DNA of 20,000 nt, from IMG/VR virus record IMGVR_UViG_3300031133_000283; one strand, given 5' to 3'. Source of the stretch: an uncultured virus (IMG/VR IMGVR_UViG_3300031133_000283). Its lineage: Duplodnaviria; Heunggongvirae; Uroviricota; Caudoviricetes. How positions within the stretch are numbered: the stretch's first letter is position 1; every line of letters starts with the position of its first letter. The notes under the pieces are model-generated. The model had not been told where the DNA came from. It made no database searches and was given only the letters and a program-made list of their open reading frames with translations. A program made the translations under genes and the position numbers. Positions 1,353-20,000 of this stretch are shown in pieces.

Positions 1353-3213
1353 CTTTATGTCCGATTCACTTGATACCAACCCCGCGTTAGCTGTGCGGGC
1401 TGTCCCCCCTTACCGTGAGCGTTGGGACAAAATTGGCAGGCTCTATCATAAGCCTGGTTTTGAACTCCCGAGCGATTACCGGGAGCTTCCTGTTCTAAAA
1501 CAGCTTATTCGTGACGGTGATCTGGTTCCTTCCATCACCAATGTCATCGATGTTAAAGGTAGCCCTTACCTGGTTGACTGGGCAGCAAAGCTCGTCGCAA
1601 AAGAAGGTATTCGAATTGGTATCCGATTCGCACAAGACCTTGCGGCTCGAGAAGAGAAGGCTTTCCGTTATCTGAAAGATATCCCTCATACTGAGAAGAC
1701 TTTTTGGGGCACTCAGGGTACTAATGTGCACACTGCTTGTGAACTTATCTCTCTTGGGAAAGACTATTCTCATTTGAAATTGACTGAGTACGAGCAGCAA
1801 TGCGTGGACCAGTTCAAACGTTGGCTTGATGATTTCCAGCCAACGTTCAATTACACCGAGTTCACTGGATTCGGCACCACCCGTAATACTAAACTTGGGT
1901 TTGCTGGAACAGCAGACTTCCACGCCACTGTGAATGGAGTAAATATCTTGGGCGACTACAAATGCACGACTGATGACACGCTTATCCTGATGAAGGATGG
2001 TTCCCAGAAAAAAGCTAAGGATATTCAGGTTGGTGACGAAGTAGTTTCATGGTCTGAGAAGGATGGCCTCCGTTCTGACTACGTTTCATATGTTGGCTCC
2101 AATGGCGTGAAGAAAACATATACAGTTATCACTGAGCTGGGTCAGACTATTACTGTTACAGGTAACCACAAATTCCTCAAGCGTTCTGACCAGGGCATGG
2201 TTTGGTCTGAGAGTGAAACGTTGACTAGTGATGACCGTGTGTACATTGTTTCTGGTTGGTCACACTCTCCGTACAAGACTGAGACAGAATGGCCTTTCAA
2301 TAAGCATCTCTCTCCTTATCTCTTAGGTATGCTCTGGGCATTAGCACATCACAATAAAAACGAGTGGACTGATTCAGGTAAGGTTGATTACCCGACCAGC
2401 GCCCGCGCAGAACTGTTTGATGAGCTGGCTTCCTTCGGTTTCCTTCGTTCAGCAGATGACCGTATCCGTGTAAAGACAGGTCTGCGTCGTGTTGCTAACA
2501 AAACAAAGATTTCCATCGAAGAGCTTCTGGAACTCATCAACACGGACCGAATTCCTGATTTTGTTTTCACTTCCCCTCTTATTTTCCAGACTGCATTCAT
2601 GTCAGGTGTCCAGGAAGTGTTTGCAAATAAAGCTGTCAATGAAGATTACTTCTTTGTAGAGCACCGTGGTATTGAAAGTCTTCGCTCTTTGCAGCAGTTG
2701 TACTTCAATAACGGCCAGGTGACAAAGATTGGTGCAAACGCGAAGACAAAGCACCCAGTTCTGCGTCTTCCTATCCAGTCAGGTGAGCAGGTTCACATTT
2801 ACGGACTTGAAGAGGTAAAAGTTGTTCGAGTGACTGAAAACGAAGAACCTGTACACACTGTTGCTATCACCGTTGAGAACACCCACAATCACGTCACTGG
2901 TGGAGTCCTGACTCACAATACAAACCGCTCTGGTCTGCACGCAACTATTGCGTTACAGCTGGCAGCTAACCGTTTCGTGGATACTATTACTCCTGATAAC
3001 AGAACTATGATTACCCCTCCTCAGACAGACATCACTGCTGGTTTGCACCTTTCTCCAAAGGGATACACCTTCAAAGAGGTTGACTCTTCGGAGAAGATGT
3101 TCGGTATGTTTGAATCACTTCGTGAAGTTTGGCCGTTCCATGCATTTGAAGGGTCTTTGGATGACTCTAAGGGTGTTTTCTTGCGTACCATGAAAACTCC
3201 AGCTGATATTTGA
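1348..3213 (+). CDS. PD-(D/E)XK exonuclease (phage Cas4/RecB/YqaJ-like) containing an intein
   Basis: Extein motifs VPSITNVI..LVDWAAK, GTNVH, FAGTAD, ILGDYK|T and LQLAA. About 302 aa after removing the intein. The start may be TTG 1348 or ATG 1357. Confidence 0.85.
   Translation: MSFMSDSLDTNPALAVRAVPPYRERWDKIGRLYHKPGFELPSDYRELPVLKQLIRDGDLVPSITNVIDVKGSPYLVDWAAKLVAKEGIRIGIRFAQDLAAREEKAFRYLKDIPHTEKTFWGTQGTNVHTACELISLGKDYSHLKLTEYEQQCVDQFKRWLDDFQPTFNYTEFTGFGTTRNTKLGFAGTADFHATVNGVNILGDYKCTTDDTLILMKDGSQKKAKDIQVGDEVVSWSEKDGLRSDYVSYVGSNGVKKTYTVITELGQTITVTGNHKFLKRSDQGMVWSESETLTSDDRVYIVSGWSHSPYKTETEWPFNKHLSPYLLGMLWALAHHNKNEWTDSGKVDYPTSARAELFDELASFGFLRSADDRIRVKTGLRRVANKTKISIEELLELINTDRIPDFVFTSPLIFQTAFMSGVQEVFANKAVNEDYFFVEHRGIESLRSLQQLYFNNGQVTKIGANAKTKHPVLRLPIQSGEQVHIYGLEEVKVVRVTENEEPVHTVAITVENTHNHVTGGVLTHNTNRSGLHATIALQLAANRFVDTITPDNRTMITPPQTDITAGLHLSPKGYTFKEVDSSEKMFGMFESLREVWPFHAFEGSLDDSKGVFLRTMKTPADI
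1963..2919 (+). mobile_element. intein (319 aa) with a degenerate LAGLIDADG-type insert
   Basis: Block A CTTDDTLILMKDGSQKKAKDIQVGDEV, block B TITVTGNHKF (TxxH), blocks F/G TVAITVENTHNHVTGGVLTHN followed by +1 Thr. LAGLIDADG-like remnants PYLLGMLWAL and IPDFVF...AFMSGVQE. Confidence 0.92.
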
Positions 3214-3217
3214 TAGT

Positions 3218-3766
3218 ATGGCTCGTAAACCTATTCTACCTGACGAAAACGGCGTATACACTGACGCTCAATTAGAGCGCCTTCGCAACCGTGCCTGGAA
3301 TTCAGCAATCTGGCATCTTGGTCGCGCTCCTCAAACGGAGTATCAGATTCGTGAGAAACTCCGTAAGAAAATTATCCCTCAGGACATCATTGATGCGACT
3401 GTGGAAAAACTACTGAACGTAAAATATCTTAATGACCGTGACTATGCTGAGAACTTTATTTACAGTAAACGTAAGTATGAAAAGCTCGGTACGTCTGCTA
3501 TCAAAATGAAATTGTCGCAAAAAGGTGTTGACCGTGAAATCATTGATGAACTACTCGCAGAAGTAGACCCTGAAGATTTGCGAGAAACAGCCGTTATCTT
3601 AGCGGAAAAGAAAATGCGTTCTCTTATGCGAGAACCAGATAAGCAGAAACGTATCAGTAAGATGGTTTCTTTCTTAGCCTATCGTGGATACAACGCTGGC
3701 GTTGCTTATGATGTAGCAAAACAAGTGGTTGAAACAAGTGCTGAAAATGACCTGGATTATTCCTGA
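3218..3766 (+). CDS. recX: RecX family RecA regulator
   Basis: Typical RecX repeats: AIWHLGRAPQTEYQIREKL, YLNDRDYAENFI, G..AIKMKLSQKGV, KMVSFLAYRGY. Confidence 0.9.
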   Translation: MARKPILPDENGVYTDAQLERLRNRAWNSAIWHLGRAPQTEYQIREKLRKKIIPQDIIDATVEKLLNVKYLNDRDYAENFIYSKRKYEKLGTSAIKMKLSQKGVDREIIDELLAEVDPEDLRETAVILAEKKMRSLMREPDKQKRISKMVSFLAYRGYNAGVAYDVAKQVVETSAENDLDYS

Positions 3767-3814
3767 CTGTTAGAATAGATAGTAGAAACACACAGACAAC
3801 AGTAAAGGAAAATC

Positions 3815-5371
3815 ATGAGCGTTTTTGTTTCACACGATGGCGATGGTACCGAGGTATACGTAGCAACAGCAAAAGGTAAAGTTACTCAGTTAGATGAGAA
3901 AGCTAATGCTATTAATGTAAAGATTGAAGCTCCTTATTTAGACTACCCACTCAATGGTTGGTTGAACAAAGATGAGGAAATCCTTACAGCAATCCGTAAA
4001 GCGCATGAAGATGGAACCGAACATGAAGTTCGTATCGAATCTCAGCGTAAAAAAGGGTTAGACCGTTCCACCCCCATCCAAGAACTTCGTGAGAAAGATG
4101 CTAATAAGAACATCATCAAAAAGCTTGTAGCTTTTGATGGAGCTTTTACAGGAGAAGCTCTCACGAACCCTGAGGAAGACCCTGCTACTGGGCAGGCAAC
4201 CTCAGCTCTTAACAAACCAGCACGTAACAATACTGGTGGCACTTCAACTGGCGGAAGCACAAGCGTTAACAAAGAGGATGTTCTTGCTACTCTGAAAAGC
4301 TTGGCTACTGCACGCGAAGTTTCAGAAAGCGTCCTTGACGCAGTAAAAGCACAGGCACTTATCTCAGGAGCCACCGCAGCAGAAGTTATTGCTGCTTCAA
4401 CTCTTGCTGATGAAGAACCTAACGCAGTTCAGGCAGGTTTCAGTAAGGAAGCCCCTGGATTCAAAGAGTACAACTCTGATGGTCGCTTGAACTTAGGTGG
4501 ACCATCAGTTTCAGCAGGTGTTGGTGTATACAACTCTGTATATGAGCGACTTAACAAGCAGTTAGGGAAAGAACCTAATGCTGAAACAGTGGAATTCTTA
4601 GCACACTTGCTTCTTTCCATTGCTGACCGCATTCAGGTTGGAGCATATGGAACAGGCTTCCGTATTGACCGCACTGCTGGGTCCCATACCCGTGTTCGTG
4701 CATCGATTTACACGTTGCTTGACGCTGGTGTAGCACTTCCTATCAATACTGATGGCACTATTGCCAGCAAAGAAGCCGTAAACGACTTCGTTCAGTACGT
4801 TGGTAAAACAGCTCGCCATAACTTCCTTGCTGGAATCAAAGTTTCACAGCAGAACGTATCAGTCAACGCCTTGCTGGCCAGCTTGGACAAGTCAGCAGTT
4901 GCTGATGCAGCTCCTGTTAACACAGTTCCTGATGTAGCGCCTGAGGCACCTCAGTCAGCAGTAGAGGAATCTCAGGTAACTGTTACCTCTGGTATCGTTG
5001 CTCCTGCCTCAGAGGAGGAAGTAGCTACTCCCGCTGCAGCAACTGTTTCCAGCCCTGTCTCTGCGCCTGAACCAGTGAATGTTGTTGATGGCACTGAATG
5101 GTTCCCTCAGCAGCTTCTCCCACCAGGAGCAATCAATGCTTCCAACGCACCAAGCGAAGAAACTCTTGAAGAGTTCAAAAACTTTGTTGTAGAGGAAGCT
5201 AAATTGCAGTCAAAAGCAGAACAGGCACAAGTAGCGAAACTGTTGGCTCATACCTTCGGTAAGTCATACAGTAAGGCTTCCAATGTTCCTGATGAGCACC
5301 TTGGTGACTTCCTTGACTTCTACGTTGCCAGTGGCGTAGAGAACTTCAAGGCTGTTCTCGCCAGCTTCTAA
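3815..5371 (+). CDS. hypothetical 518-aa multidomain protein in the recombination cluster
   Basis: Strong RBS AAAGGAAA before the ATG. Globular segments are separated by G/S/T-rich and A/P/E-rich linkers. No family recognised with confidence. Confidence 0.85.
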   Translation: MSVFVSHDGDGTEVYVATAKGKVTQLDEKANAINVKIEAPYLDYPLNGWLNKDEEILTAIRKAHEDGTEHEVRIESQRKKGLDRSTPIQELREKDANKNIIKKLVAFDGAFTGEALTNPEEDPATGQATSALNKPARNNTGGTSTGGSTSVNKEDVLATLKSLATAREVSESVLDAVKAQALISGATAAEVIAASTLADEEPNAVQAGFSKEAPGFKEYNSDGRLNLGGPSVSAGVGVYNSVYERLNKQLGKEPNAETVEFLAHLLLSIADRIQVGAYGTGFRIDRTAGSHTRVRASIYTLLDAGVALPINTDGTIASKEAVNDFVQYVGKTARHNFLAGIKVSQQNVSVNALLASLDKSAVADAAPVNTVPDVAPEAPQSAVEESQVTVTSGIVAPASEEEVATPAAATVSSPVSAPEPVNVVDGTEWFPQQLLPPGAINASNAPSEETLEEFKNFVVEEAKLQSKAEQAQVAKLLAHTFGKSYSKASNVPDEHLGDFLDFYVASGVENFKAVLASF

Positions 5372-5376
5372 ACCCC

Positions 5377-5415
5377 GTTGGGTCCCCGTAGATATATTGT
5401 TTGCGGGGACCCAAC
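5377..5415 (+). terminator. long GC-rich hairpin (terminator or mRNA stabiliser, no U-tract)
   Basis: GTTGGGTCCCCGTA (5377-5390)/TGCGGGGACCCAAC (5402-5415), one G-U pair, just after the stop at 5371. Confidence 0.7.
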
Positions 5416-5426
5416 CCCTATGGAAA

Positions 5427-5441
5427 GCCTATAAGTAAAGT
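5427..5441 (+). promoter_or_regulatory. GCCNATA motif (sigma28-like -10 candidate), leaderless start
   Basis: GCCTATA 5427-5433, then 8 nt, then ATG 5442. No Shine-Dalgarno site in the gap. Confidence 0.5.
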
Positions 5442-5957
5442 ATGTTAGTAATTGGTATAGACCCTGGCGCAAAGTACACTGGTGTTTCTGTAAGGAACAT
5501 TGCAGAAGATACAATTCTTTTATCTTCAACATATGTAAAACCTGATGAAACTGAAATCTTTACTTGGGCGACAGAAGTTGCTCAATTGATTGCAGAGGAA
5601 GTTGTTTCCCAATTCCCAGATGCAAAAATTGGTATTGAAGGTATTTCCGATCCTAAGGGTTATAAAAATGGAAAACTTTCACCCCTGAATCCTAAATGGG
5701 TTATTCGTTTAGGAATTGTCGCTGGTGCAATTGCAAATGAATTCAGAGACGTGGCAGTCATTATTCCTCCTGGGAAAAATGGTTCATCACAAGCTGGATA
5801 TCCAGATGTTCTCAATGGTCGCCGCCCTGCTTCTCTTCCAGGAAAGTCAAAAGGTGCAGGAACTCGTAATCACGAGAAATCTGCATATGATGTTGCAGGA
5901 GAAATTCCTTTTGTCTCGGGAAATAATTATAAATTAGACTCAAAATCTGAGCTATAA
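5442..5957 (+). CDS. RuvC-like Holliday junction resolvase (RNase H fold)
   Basis: N-terminal VIGIDPG..TG, central IGIEG, LGIVAGAI helix, C-terminal NHEKSAYDVA. Confidence 0.8.
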   Translation: MLVIGIDPGAKYTGVSVRNIAEDTILLSSTYVKPDETEIFTWATEVAQLIAEEVVSQFPDAKIGIEGISDPKGYKNGKLSPLNPKWVIRLGIVAGAIANEFRDVAVIIPPGKNGSSQAGYPDVLNGRRPASLPGKSKGAGTRNHEKSAYDVAGEIPFVSGNNYKLDSKSEL

Positions 5958-6045
5958 AGAATAAAGACGTTAGACTATAAATAAGCAAGCGTAGACAGTT
6001 TACGTTATACGCCTTGACACATAACAAACACAGAAACGAAGAAAA

Positions 6046-6528
6046 ATGACAGCATATAACAAACACATTGTATCTGGCCGTATCGGACGTAAACCAGAAA
6101 TCCGTTACACTCCTTCCGGAGTCCCAGTTACTTCTTTCAGCTTGGCTCGCCAGCCTCGCCGTTTGAACCAGCAGACCAATCAGTGGGAAGATGGTGAACT
6201 CACTTGGTACGACGTTACCATGTTCAAGCGTCTTGCAGAGAACGTTGTTAGCTCTCTTGACCAGGGTCACGAAGTTACTGTTTTTGGTGAGCTGAAAGTC
6301 TCCCAGTACAAGACCCGCGATGGCGAAGCTCGCCAGAGTCTTGAAATTGTTGCAGATGATGTAGCAATCAGCCTTGACCACCAGATTGCTACCGTTACAG
6401 ACAAGTCTGCTTACGGAACTAAAGCTGGTGGAAACATCGGTGGTAACGGTGGCGGAAACGCACCTGCACGCACCAACAACACACCTGCTTACAGCGCACC
6501 TGCTGAGGATGACGACGCACCATTCTGA
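6046..6528 (+). CDS. ssb: single-stranded DNA-binding protein
   Basis: GRIGRKPEIRYTPSG, QWEDGELTWYDVTMF..LAENVVSSL, Gly-rich linker and acidic tail DDDAPF. Actinobacterial style. Confidence 0.96.
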   Translation: MTAYNKHIVSGRIGRKPEIRYTPSGVPVTSFSLARQPRRLNQQTNQWEDGELTWYDVTMFKRLAENVVSSLDQGHEVTVFGELKVSQYKTRDGEARQSLEIVADDVAISLDHQIATVTDKSAYGTKAGGNIGGNGGGNAPARTNNTPAYSAPAEDDDAPF

Positions 6529-6540
6529 TTCAATCAGTAA

Positions 6541-6578
6541 GAAATACCTCCCACTTCACACGAAGTGGGAGGTATTTC
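6541..6578 (+). terminator. perfect 17-bp hairpin after ssb
   Basis: GAAATACCTCCCACTTC-acac-GAAGTGGGAGGTATTTC. Confidence 0.8.
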
Positions 6579-6688
6579 CCGTTAAGGGACAATATAGCAA
6601 TGATTTTCACATTCTTATGAGGATACAGATAGATATAAACGACCCCCTTGCAGCAAGATGCTTGCACTGAGCCAATATTAGAAGTGAT

Positions 6689-8962
6689 ATGATTAGCCAA
6701 CTTGTCAACCACGCTGTAATCCTAGTAGGAATTTTCATAGGTATCTCATTAGCCTATGCCGGTTTGTCATACCTATGGAACCGTAAATATGTCCCTTCAA
6801 GGTTAGCTAAAGGTAAATTAGTGAAACCTTTGGGGAAGATTGTTTCCGAGGTGCAAACTTTTGCTTTCAAAGAAGATAATCGCAGCTTACTGAAAAAAGG
6901 TTCCCCAAAGGTCAAGGGTATCTTTGCAGTTAAGCGTCTGCACATCTATCTGTTTATCATCGGAGCTGTTGGGTTCATCTTAACAGGAAACTACTTATTC
7001 CTGATTGTTTTCCCAATCAGCCTTGCTGTTGGGTTTAGCCGTGCAATGCCAGTTCTGAAAGAACGTAACCAAGTCCTTGAACGCATTTTTGCTATTGCAG
7101 GGGCTTCCATCAACTTCTCTAATGGGACAAGAGGTAAGAGCGCTGTTCCTCCTGCCTACTGGAATCATCTTACAGTAGAAGAATGGACCTTCAATCAAGA
7201 AGGGGATACTCGTGAGTATATCCCTAAAAAAATGATTCTTTCTTTCCCTACTGGAAAAGGACCTGACCAGACTGCGCAGCGTACGTTTGAGAAGACATTC
7301 AAAGCTAATGTTAGCAATTTGAACGACTGGCACGTCGAATGGGAATTGACAAAAGACCGTGCAGTATTCAACCGTGTTGAAAACCTTCCAACTACGCTGA
7401 ATTATCCTGGTTCTGAGGACTCAAATTGGAGTCGCTTCCCAGTTGGATTATCTACTGCTGGAATAGCCGCGTTTGACGTTTCTACATTCCCTCACTGCCT
7501 TGTTGGTGGACCATCAGGTACAGGTAAATCAGTTCTGCAGCGTAACATTGTATTTCACACCATTCAGCATAACTATCGCTGGCGTTTCCTTGGTATTGAC
7601 TTGAAACGAGTAGAGCTCACACCTTATAACCGTTATAAGAAAACAGTTATGGGTATCGCTACTGAAGTTGACCAGGGTCTTGAAGTTCTCAAATATGTTA
7701 ACAATGAGATGATGGACCGTTACAAGATGATGGAGGAGCAAGGCAAGAATAATCTTATGGACCTTGATGACCCTCCATACTGCATCCTCCTCATGATTGA
7801 TGAGGCTACCATGTTCTTAGGTGCTTCTGGCTCTAAAACAGAAGAAGGTAAAGCAGAAGACGCTATGAAAGCAGAAGCGTCAGACTTAGTAGGTAAGATT
7901 CTTCGTTTGGGTCGTGCTGCTGGTATTCACATGGTTGTTGCTATGCAGCGACCTGACGCTACTGTCCTCCGAGGTGAGTTCAAAGCTAACATGGACGTAC
8001 GTCTTGCAGCAGGTCGTATGGACTCTACTCCATCTGCCATGATTTTAGACTCTGGTGAAGCAGTTAACCTGCCAGGTATCAAAGGTCGCGGACTTATCCG
8101 TGTCGGTGGTTCTTTGGATACTTTCCAGGGCTACTTTGCTCAGCCAGACTGGATTGACGATTTTATTTTAGCTCACCCAGAAGTAGAACCTTCAACAGTA
8201 TCCCCTGGTGGACACCTTCATGAGAAATACCAAGCAAGCCAGCGTTTAAAAACTGCGGATGCGCCTGCTATTGAAGAACAGCCAATCTCTATGGACAAAA
8301 CTGTCTCAGCTGAACCAGCTCTGTCTATGGATAAAGAAGCATCTCCTGTCTTACAGATGGAAAAAACATTCCCTGAACCTGATTTCATGAATGAGCCAGA
8401 ACCTGCAACAGCAGGACAGCAGAATCTCATGGAAGCTTTGCAGAAGAAGCCTGTTGACAATACATTGGATATGGGAGAGAAGACCATTCCTACCTTCTTC
8501 ACTGGTTCTGCTAATCCTCAGCAGAGTGCCCCTACATCGGAACCAGAGCTGAAACTCTCAGAAGATGATTTCGTTCTTGACGACTTTGATGATTCAATCC
8601 CAGAAGAAGAAGTTGTTCCCCAACCAACAGCTCAAGCTCCTGCCGCAAAGGTTACAACTATTCCTTCGCCTTTCGGTTCAAAGCCAACGCGTCCTGGAGT
8701 ACAGCGCCCTGCGAAAGCCCCAGTAGCTCCTGTGAGCGATTCTGAGGCCAGTAAACCTCGTTCTCTCCCTGGGAGACCAGGGGGCTTCCCAGCGCGTCCA
8801 GAGACCCCACAGCAGGTTCCTGAGCAGGTCCCAGAGAAGCCTGTTGCTCAGGAAAAAACAGAAGAGCCAAAGGTTGCCCCTAAGCGACCTGTTTCTCCAA
8901 ATAAAGCACCTATTGTCACAAAACCATCAAACGGTCAGAGAATAAGTAATCCTTTTGGGTAA
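6689..8962 (+). CDS. membrane-anchored FtsK/SpoIIIE-family ATPase (TraB/TcpA-like DNA translocase or coupling protein)
   Basis: N-terminal TM helices, Walker A HCLVGGPSGTGKS, GIDLKRVEL, Walker B LLMIDEA, and LGRAAGIHMVVAMQRPD. Long Pro/Glu-rich disordered tail. Confidence 0.9.
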   Translation: MISQLVNHAVILVGIFIGISLAYAGLSYLWNRKYVPSRLAKGKLVKPLGKIVSEVQTFAFKEDNRSLLKKGSPKVKGIFAVKRLHIYLFIIGAVGFILTGNYLFLIVFPISLAVGFSRAMPVLKERNQVLERIFAIAGASINFSNGTRGKSAVPPAYWNHLTVEEWTFNQEGDTREYIPKKMILSFPTGKGPDQTAQRTFEKTFKANVSNLNDWHVEWELTKDRAVFNRVENLPTTLNYPGSEDSNWSRFPVGLSTAGIAAFDVSTFPHCLVGGPSGTGKSVLQRNIVFHTIQHNYRWRFLGIDLKRVELTPYNRYKKTVMGIATEVDQGLEVLKYVNNEMMDRYKMMEEQGKNNLMDLDDPPYCILLMIDEATMFLGASGSKTEEGKAEDAMKAEASDLVGKILRLGRAAGIHMVVAMQRPDATVLRGEFKANMDVRLAAGRMDSTPSAMILDSGEAVNLPGIKGRGLIRVGGSLDTFQGYFAQPDWIDDFILAHPEVEPSTVSPGGHLHEKYQASQRLKTADAPAIEEQPISMDKTVSAEPALSMDKEASPVLQMEKTFPEPDFMNEPEPATAGQQNLMEALQKKPVDNTLDMGEKTIPTFFTGSANPQQSAPTSEPELKLSEDDFVLDDFDDSIPEEEVVPQPTAQAPAAKVTTIPSPFGSKPTRPGVQRPAKAPVAPVSDSEASKPRSLPGRPGGFPARPETPQQVPEQVPEKPVAQEKTEEPKVAPKRPVSPNKAPIVTKPSNGQRISNPFG

Positions 8963-10353: not shown

Positions 10354-10415
10354 TATTTAAAAGATAAAACCTCGTTACCAATTTGTTACTTATTGCCATA
10401 GAACGAGTAGTACGC

Positions 10416-10430
10416 GCCGATAAATTCCCC
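10416..10430 (+). promoter_or_regulatory. GCCGATAA sigma28/WhiG-like -10 box, leaderless start
   Basis: GCCGATA 10416-10422, then 8 nt, then ATG 10431. No Shine-Dalgarno site. Confidence 0.55.
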
Positions 10431-11650: not shown

Positions 11651-11719
11651 ACAGTAAACTATCGGAAAGCTAACAGGTGAACGCACTCTTGGTGCCTACA
11701 AGTAAACGATCAACAAAAG

Positions 11720-11748
11720 TTGACAGCCTTCTTACTCCATGGTATAGT
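11720..11748 (+). promoter_or_regulatory. SigA-type promoter for the RNA ligase
   Basis: TTGACA (11720-11725), 17-nt spacer, TGg-TATAGT (11743-11748). Confidence 0.8.
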
Positions 11749-11837: not shown

Positions 11838-12920
11838 ATGGCAACATTTGAAGTTACAATTGAAAACATCACAGTGCACCCTCACCCGAATGCTGACCGA
11901 CTCGAGTACGCTCAGGTTGGCCTGTACAATGTCGTGGTTCCCAAAGGTGTGTACAGCACAGGAGATGAAGTTTTCTACATCCCTGAATACGCTGTACTGC
12001 CTGAAACAATCATTGCAAAGTTAGGGCTTGAAGGCAAGCTGGCAGGACGTAAAAAAGACCGAGTGAAGCCTGTCCGTCTACGCGGACTTCTCTCACAAGG
12101 GCTTGTTGCTCCTCTTGATATCCTTGACGTTGACTGGGACCGTAATAAGAAAGACTTCTCAGAAGACTTAGGGATTGTGAAATGGGAACCTGAAATTCCT
12201 CTTTCATTAGCAGGAGATGTAACAGCTGCACCTGAGCTTGTTCGTTGGATTGATATTGAAAACATCAAGAAGTTCCCGAACATGTTCACAGATGGTGAAC
12301 TTATTGTCGTTGATGAAAAAGTTCACGGGACAGCAACCTGCATTACCGTAACAAACCTGAACACAGATGAGCCAACAGTGTATGTTACTTCTAAGGGAAT
12401 CGGAGCACGTAATCTTGCTCTGAAAGAAGACCCGAAGAACGCATACTGGCGGATGTTCCACAAGTACGAACTGCTGGAATTTACTAAGTTCATCGCTACA
12501 CGTTTCCCAGGAACAGAGAAAGTCGCTGTTTTCGGAGAAACATACGGTTCAGTGCAAGACCTGCATTACGGCCTGAACAACGATTTAGGTTTCATTCTGT
12601 TCGACATCCACCTTACCCACACAGCAGCAGAGGGTATTGTTGGAGAATGGGTTGACCCTGAAACAACAGAACAGCTCGCTCATGAAGCAGAAGTTCCGTT
12701 AGCACCACGGCTTTACGAAGGGCCTTACAGCCTGGAAAAAATCACTGAACTTGCTTACGGGCCAGAACAAGTTTCTGGAACAGAAGCTAACATCCGTGAA
12801 GGAGTTGTGGTACGTCCTGCAGCAACAAACCCCAGCAAGACTTTTGAAGGGTCTCGCAAGATTGGAAAGTTTGTTTCTGATGACTACCTAACACGTTCAG
12901 GTGGGACAGAGTACAACTAA
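11838..12920 (+). CDS. ATP-dependent RNA ligase, DRB0094/Rnl5-like
   Basis: N-terminal HPNADRLE..VVVPKG..GD.V.YIPE..VLP domain. Nucleotidyltransferase motifs EKVHGT, FGE, FILFDI, REGVVVRP and KFVSDDYL. RBS AGGAGG. Confidence 0.92.
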   Translation: MATFEVTIENITVHPHPNADRLEYAQVGLYNVVVPKGVYSTGDEVFYIPEYAVLPETIIAKLGLEGKLAGRKKDRVKPVRLRGLLSQGLVAPLDILDVDWDRNKKDFSEDLGIVKWEPEIPLSLAGDVTAAPELVRWIDIENIKKFPNMFTDGELIVVDEKVHGTATCITVTNLNTDEPTVYVTSKGIGARNLALKEDPKNAYWRMFHKYELLEFTKFIATRFPGTEKVAVFGETYGSVQDLHYGLNNDLGFILFDIHLTHTAAEGIVGEWVDPETTEQLAHEAEVPLAPRLYEGPYSLEKITELAYGPEQVSGTEANIREGVVVRPAATNPSKTFEGSRKIGKFVSDDYLTRSGGTEYN

Positions 12921-12963
12921 ACAAAATGAGGGTTCCGTATTACTCGGAGCCCTCATTTTGTTT
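12919..12963 (+). terminator. 19-bp hairpin terminator
   Basis: AAACAAAATGAGGGTTCCG-tattact-CGGAGCCCTCATTTTGTTT, with a T-rich 3' arm. Confidence 0.8.
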
Positions 12964-12994
12964 CTCCCGACCAATAAGCTGGTACCATTGAATA

Positions 12995-13258
12995 ATGAAG
13001 ATCAAAACACCAGCTTGCCCAGTCTGCGGTAAAACAAGTATGCTTGACTTGCCGAACTATGTCGTAGCAAAAATACGTAGTGGAGCTTTCATTCAGGAGT
13101 CCATGAAAGATTACGATGCTGATACCAGAGAACTTGCTCTTACCGGGACACATCCCGCATGCTGGGATTCAATGATGCCTGAGGATGAGGAGGAAGAAGA
13201 GTTCATCACTGATCCTTGGGATGAACGAAGCTGGCATCTTCACAAACCTCCTTTTTGA
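12995..13258 (+). CDS. small putative Zn-binding protein
   Basis: CPVC near the N-terminus, TGTHPACWD and an acidic tail. Preceded by TGg-TACCAT 6 nt before the ATG, consistent with a leaderless SigA-type start. Confidence 0.7.
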   Translation: MKIKTPACPVCGKTSMLDLPNYVVAKIRSGAFIQESMKDYDADTRELALTGTHPACWDSMMPEDEEEEEFITDPWDERSWHLHKPPF

Positions 13259-13346
13259 GGGAATCAAATCAACTCATTAGCAGTTGAAGAATAGGCAAGC
13301 TCAGCCTATAAATTGAGAGCGAAAAAGAAGCAATAGAAATGGAATC

Positions 13347-14150
13347 ATGACTAACACTGCATATGAAGACCTTCTCCGACATGTCGTAGAGAACGGAACA
13401 CACAAAAGCGACCGAACAGGCACAGGTACCACAAGTGTCTTTGGTGCGCAAATGCGCTTTGACCTAAAAGAGGGCTTTCCTCTTATCACCACCAAGAAAG
13501 TATTCATGAAAGGTATTGTTCATGAGCTTCTTTGGTTCTTACAAGGTGCAAGTAACACCGAATATCTGCAAGAACATAACGTCAAAATTTGGGATGCTTG
13601 GGCAGATGAAGATGGGGAGCTTGGACCAGTTTATGGTGTACAGTGGCGCTCCTGGCCTAACCCTTACAAGCCTGGGGAAACCATTGACCAGATTGCAGAT
13701 GTTATTGAACAAATCAAAACGAATCCTGACAGCCGTCGCCTTATTGTGCAGGCATGGAATCCAGCTGCATTAGAGTTACAAGCGCTGCCTCCTTGCCATG
13801 CATTCTTCCAGTTCTATGTAGCTGACGGCAAACTTTCATGCCAGCTGTACCAGCGTAGTGGTGATATGTTCTTAGGTGTTCCATTCAACATTGCTTCATA
13901 TGCTCTGCTTACTCATATGATTGCTCAGCAGACAGGTTTGGAAGTAGGCGAGTTCATTCACACCTTAGGTGATGCTCACGTTTATGACAACCACCAAGAG
14001 CAGGTTCGTGAGCAGCTTTCACGAGATATCCGAGAATTCCCAACCTTGAAGTTGAACAAAGCTGACTCCATCGATGATTACAAGTACGAAGATGTTGTCA
14101 TTGAAGGATATGACCCTCATCCTGCAATTCGCGGCGCAGTAGCAGTCTAA
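13347..14150 (+). CDS. thyA: thymidylate synthase
   Basis: [68 protein letters not shown]. Confidence 0.98.
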
Positions 14151-14165
14151 TTGCTATAAAACGCC

Positions 14166-14211
14166 AGTGGCGGTTCATCAGATAAGATTCTGGTGAACCG
14201 CCACTTTTTTT
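14166..14211 (+). terminator. intrinsic terminator of thyA, overlapping the 3' end of the convergent gene
   Basis: AGTGGCGGTTCATCAGA/TCTGGTGAACCGCCACT, 17-bp stem with one G-U pair, followed by a T run to 14211. Confidence 0.85.
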
Positions 14212-14645
14212 GGAACTTTATTTACATATAAATACGCATGAATTGCTATGTACGCAATAAAACAGATAGCTGCTAATACCGCTAGTGTTATCAAAGAAGC
14301 ATACGAAGCTGGAATGAATAAGAAGAAAACGCTGAGTAATGAAACTACTAACACTGTCCCCATTAACGCACTTCTTCGAACATCCAAGATATCAGCTCTG
14401 GTATCTTGGAATCCTTTCCACCATCCAGAAAACCCGACTTTTACTGGGGTGAAACGAAATGCATGAATCAGATTCTCCTGAGGGAGCCTTTTCCCTCTCA
14501 TGTAGAGCTTATTCTCTGCAATATCCACTTTCTCTTTAAGCGTTTTCCAACTTGTGAATACTTCCCCATCGTACCATTGCAATCCACCTGCTTTCAAAGC
14601 ATTTCTTTGCATTTCTGATCCAATGAATTCTACTTTACCTAACAT
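14178..14645 (-). CDS. membrane protein with two C-terminal TM helices
   Basis: Fills the thyA-folA gap. Two hydrophobic helices. TAATAT lies 7 nt before the ATG. Confidence 0.7.
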   Translation of the reverse strand: MLGKVEFIGSEMQRNALKAGGLQWYDGEVFTSWKTLKEKVDIAENKLYMRGKRLPQENLIHAFRFTPVKVGFSGWWKGFQDTRADILDVRRSALMGTVLVVSLLSVFFLFIPASYASLITLAVLAAICFIAYIAIHAYLYVNKVPKKVAVHQNLI

Positions 14646-14717
14646 ATGTTCTATATTACTCTATTTTTTCAATTCGAGGTACTCTGTTCGATAAAGCAAG
14701 TAGAAAAGATAAGGAAT

Positions 14718-15209
14718 ATGACTATCAAAGCAATTTGGGCACAAACCCCACACGGAATCATTGGGGATGGCAGTAGTATGCTTTGGCATCTCCCAGAAGA
14801 TTTGAAACACTTTGCTGATTTGACAAAGAACCATACGGTAGTTATGGGACGCAAAACTTGGGATTCCCTTCCTGCAAAGTCACGCCCGTTACCTCAGAGA
14901 CGTAATGTTGTCATTTCTCGTCGCGCCACCACATTACCAGGCGCTGATGAAATTAGTGATGATTTGTCAGCTGTGTTGCAAAATGAAAACAATGAAGAAC
15001 TTTGGGTCATCGGCGGTGGTGAGATTTACTACCAGGCGCTACCATATTTGGATGAAATTCACATTACGCGAGTTCTTCTTGATATTGACGAGGGAGTGTA
15101 TGCTCCTGAGTTAGTAGGCTTTGTTCAGCAGACAGGAACCTCTATCCGAGTTTCAACCACTGGAATTAAATACTCATTTGAAGTTTGGGTTCGTGAAAAC
15201 GCCCAGTAA
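14718..15209 (+). CDS. folA: dihydrofolate reductase
   Basis: IWAQ..GIIG, LWHLPEDLKHF, VVMGRKTWDSLP, RPLP.RRNVVISR, WVIGGGEIY. Start ATG 14718 after AAGGA. Confidence 0.96.
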   Translation: MTIKAIWAQTPHGIIGDGSSMLWHLPEDLKHFADLTKNHTVVMGRKTWDSLPAKSRPLPQRRNVVISRRATTLPGADEISDDLSAVLQNENNEELWVIGGGEIYYQALPYLDEIHITRVLLDIDEGVYAPELVGFVQQTGTSIRVSTTGIKYSFEVWVRENAQ

Positions 15210-15280
15210 AATTAGCGTATATCATGTTTTTACGCTATGATAGAGCAGTACTGACTAAACACGAAAAGAAAGCGGTGCTT

Positions 15281-15592
15281 ATGCCAATCTCAGCAGCTTA
15301 CGAGCGCACAGTCCCAGCCAAACTCTATGTGCACATTGAGGGGGAAGCGCCTTTTGAAGCAAGCGAAGCAGATTTGATTAACTTTGGTTATGTCAAAACT
15401 GAACCTGAGCCTCAGGAAATCCCTGAAACTACCCAGGAAGGTTTCGACCCGACTCCTTTGCTCCGCGCAGGCGCTAAATTCGGAGCACGTGCTTTGAAAG
15501 TAGTAAACGTTGCAAAGGATGTTACAACCACAATCGTTCGGGACAAAGTGAACGAGAAAAATAACACCAACAACAAAAACCCCAAAAACTGA
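15281..15592 (+). CDS. hypothetical protein
   Basis: Likely start ATG 15281 after AAGAAAGCGG. Asn/Lys-rich tail, followed by a strong hairpin. Confidence 0.65.
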   Translation: MPISAAYERTVPAKLYVHIEGEAPFEASEADLINFGYVKTEPEPQEIPETTQEGFDPTPLLRAGAKFGARALKVVNVAKDVTTTIVRDKVNEKNNTNNKNPKN

Positions 15593-15610
15593 AAACGCAG
15601 TAACCATCGA

Positions 15611-15661
15611 TTAATAGGCTTGGGCCTACCTTGAAATATAAGGTAGGCCCAAGCCTATTAA
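15611..15661. terminator. perfect 22-bp inverted repeat
   Basis: TTAATAGGCTTGGGCCTACCTT-gaaatat-AAGGTAGGCCCAAGCCTATTAA. Confidence 0.75.
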
Positions 15662-15667
15662 GATTTA

Positions 15668-15696
15668 TTGTCATAATGACTAAAATGTGGTAAGAT
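15668..15696 (+). promoter_or_regulatory. SigA-type promoter for the Nudix gene
   Basis: TTGTCA (15668-15673), 17-nt spacer, TGg-TAAGAT (15691-15696). Confidence 0.7.
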
Positions 15697-15722
15697 CATT
15701 ACACGTAAGAAAAGGAAGCAAC

Positions 15723-16367
15723 ATGGATACCCCCATTTCAGATAACATCAACCAGCTCTTTCATTTGAGCCTGGAAGAAAAAACCCATCTACAAGAACAG
15801 CTTGTAGAAATTCATGAGCTTTCTCAGCATTATAAGCATGACTATGAGCATGAACCTGCGCCTTCAACTCGTGACGGCGAGCAGGAGTATCTTGAAACAT
15901 ATGACCCAACACGGTATGGTGTTGACCCGACCTCTTCTGTTGGAACTGCTGATAACATTATCTTCACCGATGGCGAAGATGGTCAGCTCCAAGTGCTTCT
16001 TATTGAGCGGAAGAACTACCCATACAAAGGTTATTGGTGTCACCCAGGCGGCTTCATTGACGCAGGTGAATCAACAAAGACCGCAGCTGTGCGTGAGTTG
16101 GCAGAAGAGACAAGTATGCAGGTCGACGCTGACTTAGTACTGTTCGTCAAGCGTTACGCTCAGCCGTGGCGGGACCCTCGCATGAAATATATTGTTATGA
16201 ACACTCATGTGGCCTACTTCCCTACTATCCCAGCTTTTGCTGCTGCTGATGACGCAGCTGATGCAAAACTTGTCGATGTTGCAAGTCTCTATACCGAAGA
16301 TGGTCTGCCTTTGGGCTTTGACCATAAGCAGTCAATTGCGGATGCAGTCCAGTTCCTGCTTAATTAA
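15723..16367 (+). CDS. Nudix hydrolase, NrtR/ADP-ribose pyrophosphatase-like, without a wHTH domain
   Basis: EYLETYDP..Y, LQVLLIERKNYPYKGYWCHPGGF, Nudix box GFIDAGESTKTAAVRELAEET, RDPR, A.DDAADA, LGFDH. Start ATG 15723 after AAAGGAAG. Confidence 0.88.
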   Translation: MDTPISDNINQLFHLSLEEKTHLQEQLVEIHELSQHYKHDYEHEPAPSTRDGEQEYLETYDPTRYGVDPTSSVGTADNIIFTDGEDGQLQVLLIERKNYPYKGYWCHPGGFIDAGESTKTAAVRELAEETSMQVDADLVLFVKRYAQPWRDPRMKYIVMNTHVAYFPTIPAFAAADDAADAKLVDVASLYTEDGLPLGFDHKQSIADAVQFLLN

Positions 16368-16635
16368 CAGCGTGTTACAGTTTCATTTTTCTCACTGCTT
16401 ATTCTGCTTCTCATTCTAAAAAGCCGATAGGATTTAAGCACACAGAAAGACCGTGAAAACGTTGACTGCTTACACCATTGTTAGTGCTGGACTGCTTCTC
16501 AAAGCAGCCGGATTCAACGTTCACCATGTTCACCTTCCGAGGGGGTGTTGCTCTTCCAGTTAAGAACAAACCGTCACCCAAAATGCAAGCAACAAGCCCC
16601 TCAAAAATCTATTATAAAAAGGAAGGATGTGCATC

Positions 16636-18297
16636 GTGTCTGTTTTCTACGAGACTGATGTCAACCAGAACATCCAGCATGAAGTCAAAGTCCGTCTTCG
16701 TACTCGTGAAGAAGCTCCTGAAAAGGCAACCCTTTACGTCGGCCCAACTAATTCAGGTAAAACATTCAACTCATTGAATGCTTTGTTTGATGAGTATGAG
16801 CAGAATCCGCAAGGTAAGTATGTATTCGCTGGACCACTACGACAGCTCGCTTATGAAGTTTATGAGAAAATGGTTGCCCGTTATGGGGAAGAACGAGTAG
16901 GGTTTCTTACTGGAGAAGAGCAAATCAACCCAGATGCTCCTCTCATTGCCTGCACGGTAGAGATGGCTCCTGATGAAGGAGACTCCTTAGTCCTTGATGA
17001 GACACACTGGATTGTAGACAGTGACCGAGGACAGCATTGGACGAATCTTCTTATTGGTGGAAAATATAAGAACTTCCACATCCTTACTGCCATGGAAGCA
17101 CTGAATACTGTTGCTTCTTTCGTAGAAGATGCTGCAAACCTTGACCTAAAAGAATACACTCGTAAAACTCCGCTTACCTTCAAGGGTAAAATCAACATTT
17201 ACAGCGTTCCAGAACGAAGTGCTGTGGTTTGCTTCTCCCGTAAGGCCGTGTACGCTGTTGCGCAGATGCTCGAAGAAGCGGGAAAGAAAGTAGGCGTACT
17301 CTACGGTCACCTGCCTTTGAAAGCTCGTAACGCTCAGCTGGAAAAATACCTCAAAGGTGACTATGACATCATGGTAACAACTGATGTCATCGGTCATGGA
17401 ATCAATCTGCCTATTGACAATGTAGTCTTCGTGCAGTCTGAGAAGTTTGATGGTTCGCAGCGCCGTAAGCTGCGCACGTGGGAAATCGCTCAGATTGCAG
17501 GTCGCGCAGGCCGTTTCGGCTTATCAACTGAGGGATCAGTGTATGTCTTAGAAGGCAAAGACTGGTTTACTGATGACACTCTTCTTTTGGAAGAAGGAAC
17601 TCGTGCAGGTGCAGGTCTGACTGCGACTGACCTTGATGTCAGCAAAGCTATCATTACACCAAGGTTCTCTGACTTGAACATCAAGAAGCAAACAGATATC
17701 CTCCCAGCTTTGCTCTCCTGGGAGCTGGAAGCCTCTGTACGTCTCTCTGAGCGCTCCGTAGCTCCTTCCACGCTCAACGACATGAAGCACCTGCTTTACG
17801 CCGTCTCTGACCACCTGAACGCTCCTCTGTACCCTGATGAGCAGGGTGAGTGGAAGATTACAGTACCTGAACTCTGGACGCTTATCTCAGGCCCGTTCAA
17901 CCCAGAAGGTAACGCAATCAAAATGATTTCAACCTGGCTGAGTGAACGTAACCGTGAGAAATCACGCAGTCTTGAAGAATACTTCTACAACATTGTTCTT
18001 GCCCCACTATACAACCCTGTTTATGATGACAAGAACGAAAACGGTGACGAGGTATCTCCATTTGAGCACAGTGTTCATTGCATTGGGGAACTCAAAATGG
18101 CGAATATCATGTTTGGCAGTTCAGGAACTCTTCTGTACAGCGAACTGGTAGAGTATGAAGAGCGTCTTAGCGATGTCGTTATCAACACGATTCAGCATGC
18201 AATTACAAAAGGAAAATATGGCGTATGCATGACTTGCCGTAACTCCTGCTCTCCATGGTTCAAATACTGCGAGGATTGCTACTGGTCACGTCGCTGA
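16636..18297 (+). CDS. SUV3-like superfamily 2 helicase with C-terminal CxxC-CxxC
   Basis: YVGPTNSGKT, AGPLRQLAYE, TGEE, CTVEM, VLDETH, AVVCFSRK, LYG.LP, TTDVIGHGINL, QIAGRAGRFG. GTG 16636 is best spaced from RBS AAGGAAGG; the ORF track uses ATG 16627. Confidence 0.9.
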   Translation: MSVFYETDVNQNIQHEVKVRLRTREEAPEKATLYVGPTNSGKTFNSLNALFDEYEQNPQGKYVFAGPLRQLAYEVYEKMVARYGEERVGFLTGEEQINPDAPLIACTVEMAPDEGDSLVLDETHWIVDSDRGQHWTNLLIGGKYKNFHILTAMEALNTVASFVEDAANLDLKEYTRKTPLTFKGKINIYSVPERSAVVCFSRKAVYAVAQMLEEAGKKVGVLYGHLPLKARNAQLEKYLKGDYDIMVTTDVIGHGINLPIDNVVFVQSEKFDGSQRRKLRTWEIAQIAGRAGRFGLSTEGSVYVLEGKDWFTDDTLLLEEGTRAGAGLTATDLDVSKAIITPRFSDLNIKKQTDILPALLSWELEASVRLSERSVAPSTLNDMKHLLYAVSDHLNAPLYPDEQGEWKITVPELWTLISGPFNPEGNAIKMISTWLSERNREKSRSLEEYFYNIVLAPLYNPVYDDKNENGDEVSPFEHSVHCIGELKMANIMFGSSGTLLYSELVEYEERLSDVVINTIQHAITKGKYGVCMTCRNSCSPWFKYCEDCYWSRR

Positions 18298-18302
18298 CTT
18301 TG

Positions 18303-18311
18303 TGGTATCCT
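18303..18311 (+). promoter_or_regulatory. extended -10 promoter candidate
   Basis: TGg-TATCCT in the short gap before the phosphatase RBS (AAGGAG). Confidence 0.5.
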
Positions 18312-18344
18312 GATGGTAACTAAGAATATACAAGGAGACTAAAG

Positions 18345-19178
18345 ATGACACTCCCAATGAAGTTCACACTAGTACGACACGGGCTTTCCGAAGCAAACCG
18401 TGTGCAGAGGTACATTCGTGAAAAGGATACAAAAACGCTTGCGGCATTAGTGAACCCTAACTTCACCGACCGCCATGACTCCACAGCAAAGCTGACAAAA
18501 CGAGGAGTTGAGCAGGCAGAAATTACAGGGGAATGGATACGAGAAAATTTCAACCCGTTTGATAGGTTCTACGTATCCCCTCATGTTCGTACACGAGAAA
18601 CAGCTGGGCATTTGCATTTGAACGGTGACTGGATTGTGGATGACCGTTTCCGTGAGCGTGACTGGGGTGAGGTGTCATCACCAGATAAGAACCTCCAAGA
18701 TTTGATGTCTCCGCTGTCTCGCCATTTGAAAGAAATGAACGAATGGTATTGGAAGCCTCAGGGTGGAGAGTCATTGGCTACGGGTGTTCGTTCACGAGTA
18801 GAGCTTGTAATGCAGAGCCTCTACCGTAGAGAGAATGTGCAGAATGTCATTGGAGTTACTCACGGTGAGTTTATTCGTGTAGCTCAATTCGTCATTGAGC
18901 GTTTGTCACCAGATAAATTCAACCTGATGGATTCTAATGAGAAGTACCGTGTGCAGAACACTATGGTGCTTGAATACGCTCGTCAGAACCCACATAACCA
19001 TTCTGAGATTACTGAGAACTTCCATTGGCGACGAGCAACATGTCCGTGGGATGAGAGTCTTTCTTGGGATAATGGTGAATGGGTTGAGTTCCATACAGTC
19101 AAGCATTCTGATGACGACTTACTCAACTATGCAAACACATATGAAAGGTACTTCTCTGATGAGCGAATCGAAAACTGA
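18345..19178 (+). CDS. histidine phosphatase (phosphoglycerate mutase-like)
   Basis: LVRHG, LT..GVEQA, SPHVRTRET, RERDWG, GGES, VTHG. Confidence 0.92.
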   Translation: MTLPMKFTLVRHGLSEANRVQRYIREKDTKTLAALVNPNFTDRHDSTAKLTKRGVEQAEITGEWIRENFNPFDRFYVSPHVRTRETAGHLHLNGDWIVDDRFRERDWGEVSSPDKNLQDLMSPLSRHLKEMNEWYWKPQGGESLATGVRSRVELVMQSLYRRENVQNVIGVTHGEFIRVAQFVIERLSPDKFNLMDSNEKYRVQNTMVLEYARQNPHNHSEITENFHWRRATCPWDESLSWDNGEWVEFHTVKHSDDDLLNYANTYERYFSDERIEN

Positions 19179-19431
19179 AGATAGAATTCCTCTCACACAG
19201 TCTGAACGATTCATGCTTGCTCTATCATACATGGAAGCCGTCATCAAAGACGACCAACAAATGGCAGCTCTTGTACAAAAGAGTATGACATCACATGAAT
19301 TTATGGCAGGAGTTGGAGTTCTCTCGCCCATCCTCTTCACCTTATATGAACAAAAAACTGGCGAAGGAGAAGAACTTCTTCAACTCCTTCGCCAGTTAGG
19401 AAACAAAATGAAACTTGACGAGTCCCGTTAG
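19159..19431 (+). CDS. small hypothetical helical protein (90 aa)
   Basis: 3' part of ORF 18937..19431. ATG 19159 follows GAAAGG and overlaps the phosphatase end. Confidence 0.6.
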   Translation: MSESKTEDRIPLTQSERFMLALSYMEAVIKDDQQMAALVQKSMTSHEFMAGVGVLSPILFTLYEQKTGEGEELLQLLRQLGNKMKLDESR

Positions 19432-19889
19432 TCAGCGTTCGGAAGAGACCAGATTTCTAAGTGAATCTGGTCTTCTTTCTTTGCTACAGACTCCATCACT
19501 TCTTTAACATCCAGCCATTCCAGACCTCCGATGTTTGCTCCGATACGGGGAACAGCGAACCCTTCTAAACCCTGCTCTTTGCAGAAACGGAAAGCAGCTG
19601 ACATAGAAGACTCAACCCATTCTAAACGAGCATGCTTACCTGGCTTGTCCTGAGAAGCCAGGTTCAGAATGTAAAAATCAGGAGCTGTCTCAACTTTGAC
19701 GTACTGCATTAAACCTGGGGCTAATGTTTTGTCCCGACAGGCTTGCTTATATGGAGCTAAAACCTGAGGGTAACGGGTTGCGACAACTTTGGCGAACCCA
19801 GCGCCCATCATCCCATAAATGTTCACCCCATGGCCAATAGCGGGCATAGTTGTCGTAAACGCATCACCTGTTATGAACTCCACAGACAT
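19428..19889 (-). CDS. stand-alone macrodomain protein (Poa1p/TARG1/DarG-macro-like)
   Basis: ITGDAF, IGHGVN..GMMGAGFAK....RYP, ILNLASQ, AVPRIGANIGGLEW..V. Start ATG 19889 after AGAAAGAG. Confidence 0.9.
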   Translation of the reverse strand: MSVEFITGDAFTTTMPAIGHGVNIYGMMGAGFAKVVATRYPQVLAPYKQACRDKTLAPGLMQYVKVETAPDFYILNLASQDKPGKHARLEWVESSMSAAFRFCKEQGLEGFAVPRIGANIGGLEWLDVKEVMESVAKKEDQIHLEIWSLPNAD

Positions 19890-19962
19890 ATAAAAATCTC
19901 TTTCTTTTTCAACCTTGATAGTAGTAATCCCCATCATACTCTAAAAAGCCGATATTTCCCAT

Positions 19963-20000
19963 ATGGATGAGACAAAAACTGATTTTACGTTGAAAGTAGC
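19963..20000 (+). CDS. probable start of next gene (MDETKTDFTLKV...), 3'-truncated
   Basis: ATG lies 8 nt after GCCGATA (19948-19954), and the frame is open to the window end. Confidence 0.4.
   Translation, partial: MDETKTDFTLKV

Follow-up and report, generated by a model that had tools for sequence, protein, structure and literature searches.

The DNA analyzed here, a window of 20,000 nucleotides, takes up the final 20 kb of a 75,357-bp record entered as a virus in IMG/VR (IMGVR_UViG_3300031133_000283, hereafter G000; G+C content, 44.7%; listed as linear, with 67% completeness). We find that a short box, (G)CCGATA(G/T), upstream of genes of this element and its relatives almost certainly defines a real promoter class, and that the box is probably a −10 element read, with little or no input from a −35 element, by a sigma-28-like factor of 248 amino acids encoded on the same element. 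A sequence-only reading of the window had proposed that the element uses its own or a co-opted sigma-28-like factor recognizing mainly a −10 box; the encoded sigma factor, the enrichment of the box and the absence of a −35 element argue for this proposal.

The box was scored in 60-nucleotide upstream regions, whose hexamers were ranked by occurrence relative to expectation. In the window, the raw count of GCCKATA is marginal (5 compared with 2.0 expected; 11 of 200 shuffles reach 5). With at most one mismatch, GCCGATA lies 7–11 nucleotides before 5 of 23 start codons chosen blind to the motif (0.11 expected), and is the sole heptamer of 16,384 to reach 5 at that position. As this window test was post hoc, DNA outside the window was tested. 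There, CCGATA ranks first of 1,835 upstream hexamers in G000 (9 of 53 genes; 0.48 expected), first in the related locus L089 (8 of 21; 0.19 expected) and first in a set of seven loci from more distant relatives (31 of 78; 1.18 expected; reverse complement, 8), with z values of 12–26. The motif is strand-specific, and its enrichment holds both contig-wide and in relatives. The tests on relatives covered 2–21 kb around the sigma genes of large contigs, and the counts omit loci that are 99% identical to G000 (L086, L087), near duplicates of L089 (L088, L090) or short or atypical (L091, L100, L120, L158). Chromosomal control loci showed no CCGATA enrichment (3 of 144 compared with 1.2 expected, and 0 of 89 compared with 0.8), and 8 of 9 upstream sites of the region shared with L089 are kept there at ~70% nucleotide identity. 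The word occurs in 1 of 200 upstream regions of G001, a record that has a homologue of the helix-turn-helix (HTH) gene of the window and no sigma match; the HTH gene of G001 carries a TG-n-TANNNT box 7 nucleotides before its ATG in place of the CCGATA box. G001 (L248-L258) is another large element (203 kb, 51% G+C) in which no sigma factor was found, which has only DnaE, SbcC and the HTH gene in common with G000 and in which the words GTGCTA, GATTTA and CCGCCT are modestly enriched upstream.

The consensus is (G/A)CCGATA(G/T): of 54 sites, 31 have G and 14 have A before the core, and 24 have G and 20 have T after it. The GCC(G/T)ATA motif originally described is thereby amended to a CCGATA core, usually preceded by G; CCTATA is not significantly enriched (3 in G000 compared with 1.0 expected). 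Nor is CCAATA enriched in G000 (2 compared with 1.0), and ACGATA (5 compared with 1.1) and CTGATA (5 compared with 1.7) are weakly or marginally so. The box can also be followed in proteins, as homologues called from an upstream start carry a translated promoter region from which its footprint can be read. The start of the Cys-rich/HTH gene is backed by 85 homologues, mostly of 175–177 amino acids; among the 15 that have an N-terminal extension, 10 show an exact box translation at a gap of 8 nucleotides (null expectation 0.3% each); in 2 others the translation has a single mismatch, and the gap is 9 in 1 and 12 in 2. Four RuvC-like homologues have a short stretch preceding the conserved Met; judged by eye, the box is compatible with all four, and one extended RuvC-like homologue fits the GCCTATA variant at gap 8, also by eye.

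How far does the box lie from the start codon? The sequence-only reading had placed it at a near-fixed spacing before leaderless genes, which fits the 5 of 23 starts in the window but does not extend to the rest of G000, where such spacing occurs in 1 of 53 genes (0.25 expected). At 54 sites outside the window, the gap is 16–54 nucleotides in 39, 11 in 10 and 8 in 2; among short gaps, 11 is the one seen most often in distant relatives. In the distant clade, some short-gap sites precede type IV pilin-like genes, and the N-terminal methylation motif is present in 5 of 9 such proteins scanned. At gap 8–11 sites of both clades, AGT often stands immediately 5′ of the ATG (window 3215-3220 and 5439-5444; L096, L098, L101). 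At the 39 leadered sites, at which an ATG cannot bias the count, a purine stands 9 nucleotides downstream of the box in 36 (p = 4e-9) and 8 nucleotides downstream in 26 (p = 0.02). This purine peak likely marks the transcription start site. In the Pseudomonas aeruginosa fliC promoter, GCCGATAA occupies −15 to −8 (PMC12784957, in excerpt); since the distance of the purine peak and the 8-nucleotide gap at 10416 match this geometry, the box appears to behave like a −10 element.

The sequence-only reading had seen no TAAA −35 box at the four sites it checked, and this absence is general: TAAA is at chance level (3 of 56 sites compared with 2.2 expected), as are T(A/C)AA (2 of 54 compared with 2.4) and CTCA (0 of 54 compared with 0.5), and no upstream column exceeds 0.17 bits except the G adjoining the box. 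We also considered TCTAAAAAG, 5′ of the box, and rejected it as a general element because, among the listed sites, only two window sites have it and there is no conserved upstream column. A separate class, TG-n-TANNNT, is also enriched upstream (17 of 76 compared with 5.5), mostly before genes other than those of the CCGATA class; it is found before ter, Nudix, RNA ligase and phosphatase genes and is likely read by the host housekeeping sigma factor.

The sigma-28-like factor sought on the element is encoded by a gene that lies before the window (Table 1). The FliA and WhiG models are the best families for the protein (E 4e-33, 115–116 bits), but it scores below their cut-offs of 189.6 and 201 and, among the 25 best matches listed, passes only the sigma-70 superfamily cut-off. 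Its closest solved relatives are WhiG and FliA, and it has regions 2, 3 and 4, no region 1 and ~250 amino acids. In P. aeruginosa sigma-28, R80, D87 and R97 contact −12G, −13C and the extended GC (PMC12784957, in excerpt). These residues align to R88, D95 and R105 of the 248-amino-acid protein and are invariant in 44 of 44 homologues, and column identity among the homologues is 0.83 in region 2.3–3.0 compared with 0.53 in the region 4.2 helix. That helix reads QHQLNQ in the near clade instead of the ESRVSQ type; the usual helix Arg is present in 0 of 44 homologues, and E or D takes its place in 21 of 44. (The P. aeruginosa residues S224 and Q228 were mapped to the −35 helix through an alignment with E. 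coli.) As both the −35 box and the helix type that would read it are lacking and the family score was missed, we call the protein sigma-28-like rather than a family member; a fold search confirms only a sigma factor, since the pTM (predicted template modeling score) of the AlphaFold model is 0.41.

In all 11 loci examined, GCCGATAG lies 17–45 nucleotides 5′ of the sigma gene (G000 C1:45898-45891, minus strand). A FastTree tree of 38 sequences and 240 columns places the 18 element sigma factors in one clade with support of 1.0, apart from the FliA proteins of Microbacterium, Cellulomonas and a Curtobacterium plasmid, although its deep branches are poorly supported. Searches of PLSDB plasmids, GenBank phages, IMG/VR and GTDB species genomes yielded no close relatives, the best full-length match having ~30% identity, and no flagellar genes or FlgM/RsiG anti-sigma factors were found among 73 proteins scanned with Pfam, which represent 75 of ~880 kb. 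In all six elements listed, a gene of 550–700 amino acids and no known family lies tail to tail with the sigma gene.

If the box is read in this way, the 248-amino-acid factor would load on host RNA polymerase and read GC-CGA through its region 2.4/3.0 residues, with transcription beginning 8–9 nucleotides after the box. Through the box 5′ of its own gene it would amplify its own expression by positive feedback, and it would drive core genes that include pilin-like, transglycosylase, SbcCD, RuvC-like and HTH genes, switching on the element's own gene set. An ATG 8–9 nucleotides from the box would yield a leaderless mRNA and one at 11 nucleotides a leader of 2–3 nucleotides, while most target genes would carry an ordinary leader. 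A stand-alone IF3 C-terminal domain is encoded at L003:12494-12811 (+) and is of interest beside such leaderless or short-leader mRNAs. As the TG-n-TANNNT promoters form a separate class, the element probably runs two transcription tiers.

A comparison is offered by the Curtobacterium giant plasmids pS16, D40 and pCPAA3 (546–608 kb; pCPAA3 is mentioned in an excerpt of PMC8929003), cultured Microbacteriaceae replicons that carry the closest transglycosylase. They have ter/TelA, thyA, DHFR and DnaE genes in common with G000, but their G+C content is 67% compared with 45%, their box is CCGCGCATAG and their FliA-like gene belongs to another clade; only 15 G000 proteins match in pS16. In the first 400 kb of pS16 (NZ_CP126255.1, 1-400000; L268-L287), CCGATA is not enriched, and GCATAG leads the upstream hexamers (77 of 376 compared with 3.2 expected). 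The plasmid-wide box CCGCGCATAG is tightly placed, with 21 of 64 CGCATA sites exactly 8 nucleotides before a start codon (ATG/GTG), and the word is also frequent in stretches of D40 and pCPAA3. The only clear sigma factor of pS16 is the FliA-like gene within a near-complete flagellar cluster (L295:738-29183; 335.7–364.2 kb), three of whose promoters, on visual inspection, resemble CTAC-N15 followed by a GCCGA-like box; the sigma gene neighbors flagellin in D40 and flgK in pCPAA3. A highly diverged sigma-like open reading frame (ORF) of pS16, L304:16961-18127 (+), with a weak region 3 match (E 0.03), is a candidate reader of CCGCGCATAG.

Several points weigh against pairing the 248-amino-acid factor with the box. 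The pairing is inferred from sequence evidence, and the pS16 case tempers it: as the FliA-like gene there seems to serve flagellar promoters of another form, an obvious FliA need not be the reader of a replicon's box. Region 4 of the 248-amino-acid protein is still modeled as a confident helix-turn-helix, and loss of the helix Arg proves little on its own, since a Microbacterium FliA also lacks it. That same Microbacterium has GCCGATAG upstream of its chromosomal fliC, so that recognition of this −10 box by a FliA of the host is conceivable, and a second sigma-like protein is encoded on G000 near the first. As to the sites themselves, gene starts were set by a simple rule rather than a gene caller; counts from relatives are not independent events, since the loci share orthologous genes; and four of the eight window sites (recX, ftsK, thyA and 19948) are individually uncertain. 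Contigs from RNA runs include one that spans the 5427 box and one whose first base, 13309, precedes the predicted +1, as read-through or DNA would explain; we counted them neither for nor against. The runs are available as contigs only and cannot show start sites.

Could the second sigma-like protein, of 433 amino acids, read the box or its one-mismatch variants, alone or in a cascade with the 248-amino-acid factor? It is sigma-28-derived (E 8e-11), occurs also in L089 and has a ~190-amino-acid N-terminal extension and no recognizable region 4. An Asn replaces the Arg that contacts −12G, and −12 is the position changed in CCTATA and CCAATA; pS16, too, has a very diverged sigma-like ORF, with its weak match, beside its FliA-like gene. 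However, the dominant word keeps G at −12, as fits a sigma factor with the Arg, the variant boxes are not or barely enriched and no box lies within 110 nucleotides of the start of the 433-amino-acid gene. The protein has no plasmid match and does not resemble the diverged ORF of pS16 (E 0.38). We consider a role for it in reading the box unlikely.

An unlikely explanation, too, is that the box is read by the flagellar FliA/WhiG1 of the host, which would tie the element's program to host motility. The Microbacterium chromosomal fliC has CTTA-N16-GCCGATAG upstream (one gene, by eye), and in actinobacteria both type IV pili and whiG itself belong to WhiG/FliA regulons (10.64898/2026.01.14.699351; PMC8325347; both in excerpt). 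Yet the host consensus, as given in the excerpted part of 10.64898/2026.01.14.699351, needs a conserved −35 element, T(A/C)AA or CTCA, neither of which is enriched at the element's sites, and the element retains a sigma factor of its own whose −10 residues are invariant and whose gene is preceded by the box in every locus examined.

It is very improbable that CCGA is a flank or activator site of housekeeping promoters whose TANNNT begins with the TA of the box, or that the box binds the HTH protein or some other transcription factor. Overlap with TANNNT is indeed seen at a few sites (16428; after 11666), and in pMP7017 a plasmid-specific motif overlaps a normal −10 element (PMC10832533, in excerpt), which counts in favor of such an arrangement. 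Tested across sites, the overlap was rejected: T stands at the required position in 23 of 56, no more than at neighboring positions. The purine peak fits sigma-28 geometry instead, promoters of housekeeping type form a largely separate class, and G001 has an HTH homologue without the box. Finally, a chance or compositional pattern, suggested by the marginal raw count in the window and conceivable for single variants such as that before recX, is refuted for the core CCGATA word by its enrichment elsewhere, the clean controls, the conserved box before the sigma gene and the conserved position of HTH footprints in homologues.

The closest precedent for an element-encoded sigma factor reading boxes on its own replicon is SigN (ZpdN) of the Bacillus subtilis plasmid pBS32, a plasmid sigma factor that has a consensus of its own, regulates genes of the plasmid only and feeds back positively on its own gene (PMC6751061, in excerpt). 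The likeness lies in a sigma factor on the same element as its proposed boxes and a box 5′ of the sigma gene. In the excerpted account, SigN promoters have both −35 and −10 elements and SigN is a possible separate subclass; the factor of G000, unlike SigN, is sigma-28-like, has no −35 element found at its boxes and some leaderless targets, and resides on a far larger replicon. SigN is also proven by experiment (PMC6751061), whereas the system described here is known from sequence.

FliA/SigD/WhiG promoters combine a −35 element (TAAA, T(A/C)AA or CTCA) with the −10 element GCCGATAA ~15–16 nucleotides downstream (PMC12784957; 10.64898/2026.01.14.699351; PMC8325347; all in excerpt). The element resembles them in its −10 core, GCCGATA, in the distance to the predicted +1 and in the R/D/R residues (PMC12784957), and in its predicted targets, which include pilus genes and the gene of the sigma factor (10.64898/2026.01.14.699351; PMC8325347). 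By comparison with these excerpts, its boxes lack the −35 consensus and end in G/T rather than A, and its factor has a variable 4.2 helix, scores under the family cut-offs and is carried by a probably extrachromosomal element, with no flagellar genes among the 73 proteins.

Late promoters of phage T4, TATAAATA, are read by gp55, and a single −10 box suffices; gp55 is a truncated sigma factor that needs gp33 and the sliding clamp. Like gp55, the factor described here is element-encoded, appears to use one −10 box and would serve a second transcription tier, but it is as long as a complete sigma-28 factor, and no co-activator was identified.

The sigma-28 promoters known so far are bipartite. 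A −10-only sigma-28-like factor, if that is what the element encodes, would offer a handle on how group 3 sigma factors trade the −35 element for an extended −10 element, a question for which its 44 natural variants and dozens of sites provide material. The box would also outline a core regulon of an element family of 0.7–1.0 Mb. The principle of an element-encoded sigma factor with a private regulon is already known from SigN and phages; in the present case, what is added is that the box coincides with the sigma-28 −10 core and that the element encodes a factor to match, with a conserved site 5′ of its gene. A broader idea, that megabase actinobacterial replicons have lineage-specific −10-only codes (CCGATA here, CCGCGCATAG in pS16) together with −35-free sigma-28 factors and phage-like two-tier transcription, is at present tentative, and we would sooner bet against it. 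If true, nature would here provide a collection of orthogonal sigma-promoter pairs, many of them yielding leaderless mRNAs or mRNAs with leaders of 2–3 nucleotides, and the sister box on cultured Curtobacterium giant plasmids makes the general idea testable at the bench.

What kind of element is G000? A 20.7-kb stretch is 99.4% identical to an 883-kb metagenome contig, two window proteins have near-identical copies on contigs of 881–883 kb, and sigma relatives occur on contigs of 725–885 kb and, in the protein collection, up to 1.0 Mb. The genes found with Pfam (73 proteins) and PHROGs (30 proteins) include those for DnaE, a RecG-like helicase, SbcCD-like proteins, SSB, RecX, FtsK, prepilin peptidase, a ter cluster, ThyA, DHFR, NAPRTase and RNA ligase. 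Neither these Pfam nor PHROG scans, which cover part of the element only, returned a capsid or portal match; a weak terminase match falls on the FtsK ATPase, and there is one weak tail match (E 2e-4). This gene content suggests an extrachromosomal element, and G000 would be a fragment of a giant plasmid-like replicon family of 0.7–1.0 Mb, although it is possible that it is a huge phage. A reduced bacterial chromosome is unlikely, as there is no ribosomal protein or tRNA synthetase among the 73 proteins and no GTDB genome with the sigma factor. The host is probably a member of the Micrococcales, since the transglycosylase is 68–78% identical and TerD and TelA ~50–58% identical to Curtobacterium giant-plasmid versions and many of the best ThyA matches in 3 of 64 database parts are from actinomycetes.

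Further searches returned no viral relatives of FtsK, no GTDB relatives in the HTH alignment, no plasmid match for the RuvC-like protein, no match to an Rfam family anywhere in the contig and, in seven loci, no tRNA. Searches of the open-licence PMC and bioRxiv literature found no description of the element family or its sigma factor. The element itself is represented in a leaf-litter RNA run, in which 13 of 22 pieces match at at least 99% identity.

The eight window sites listed by the sequence-only reading agree with the sequence in position and spacing, and the 15-nucleotide stretch TCTAAAAAGCCGATA is indeed identical at 16415 and 19940 (Table 1). The class of the 16423 site is ambiguous, since its box overlaps a TANNNT hexamer at 16428-16433, and the promoter of the RNA ligase gene is divergent from the TCCGATA box at 11666.

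Table 1. Boxes, promoters and sigma-related genes (positions without a prefix refer to the window)
Feature	Position	Strand	Remarks
GCTGATA variant	3202-3208	+	9 nt to recX ATG 3218; within final codons of preceding gene; uncertain
GCCTATA variant	5427-5433	+	8 nt to ATG 5442 of RuvC-like gene
GCCAATA variant	6671-6677	+	11 nt to ftsK-like ATG 6689; predicted +1 at 6686-6687; uncertain
GCCGATA, exact	10416-10422	+	8 nt to lytic transglycosylase ATG 10431; predicted +1 at the ATG, leaderless
TCCGATA	11666-11660	-	9 nt to ATG 11650 of Cys-rich/HTH gene; best-supported leaderless site
GCCTATA variant	13304-13310	+	36 nt 5′ of thyA, a distance typical of leadered sites; predicted +1 near 13319; uncertain
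GCCGATA(G)	16423-16429	+	~200 nt 5′ of Suv3-like helicase gene (Pfam); predicted +1 at 16438
GCCGATA	19948-19954	+	8 nt to ATG 19963; frame ends after 12 codons at contig end
Housekeeping-sigma promoter, TTGACA-17-TG-n-TAAAGT	1289-1317	+	5′ of intein-bearing nuclease gene
Housekeeping-sigma promoter, TTGACA-17-TG-n-TATAGT	11720-11748	+	5′ of RNA ligase gene; 11/12 consensus matches
Sigma-28-like gene, 248 aa	G000:C1:45100-45846	-	~9.5 kb before window
Second sigma-28-derived protein, 433 aa	G000:C1:51972-53273 (L003:14972-16273)	-
Tail-to-tail gene, possible sigma partner	L003:6305-8068	+	equivalents in L089, L092, L094, L095, L096

Among the genes behind these sites, the transglycosylase was identified through PHROG (E 4e-33) and recX through a RecX Pfam match, while the RuvC-like label comes from phage matches at ~30% identity. 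The transglycosylase gene has an in-frame TTG at 10383 as a possible alternative start, and in the strain of run X2 an extra G at window 10429 makes the gap between its box and ATG 9 instead of 8 (one contig, depth 4). Within the 200 nucleotides before the helicase gene, a possible frame of 36 codons follows a purine-rich site (16453-16563, plus strand); there is no Rfam match, and the frame ends near a hairpin at 16531-16547. At the other end of the window, an exonuclease-like gene at 1357-3213 (+) is split by an intein.

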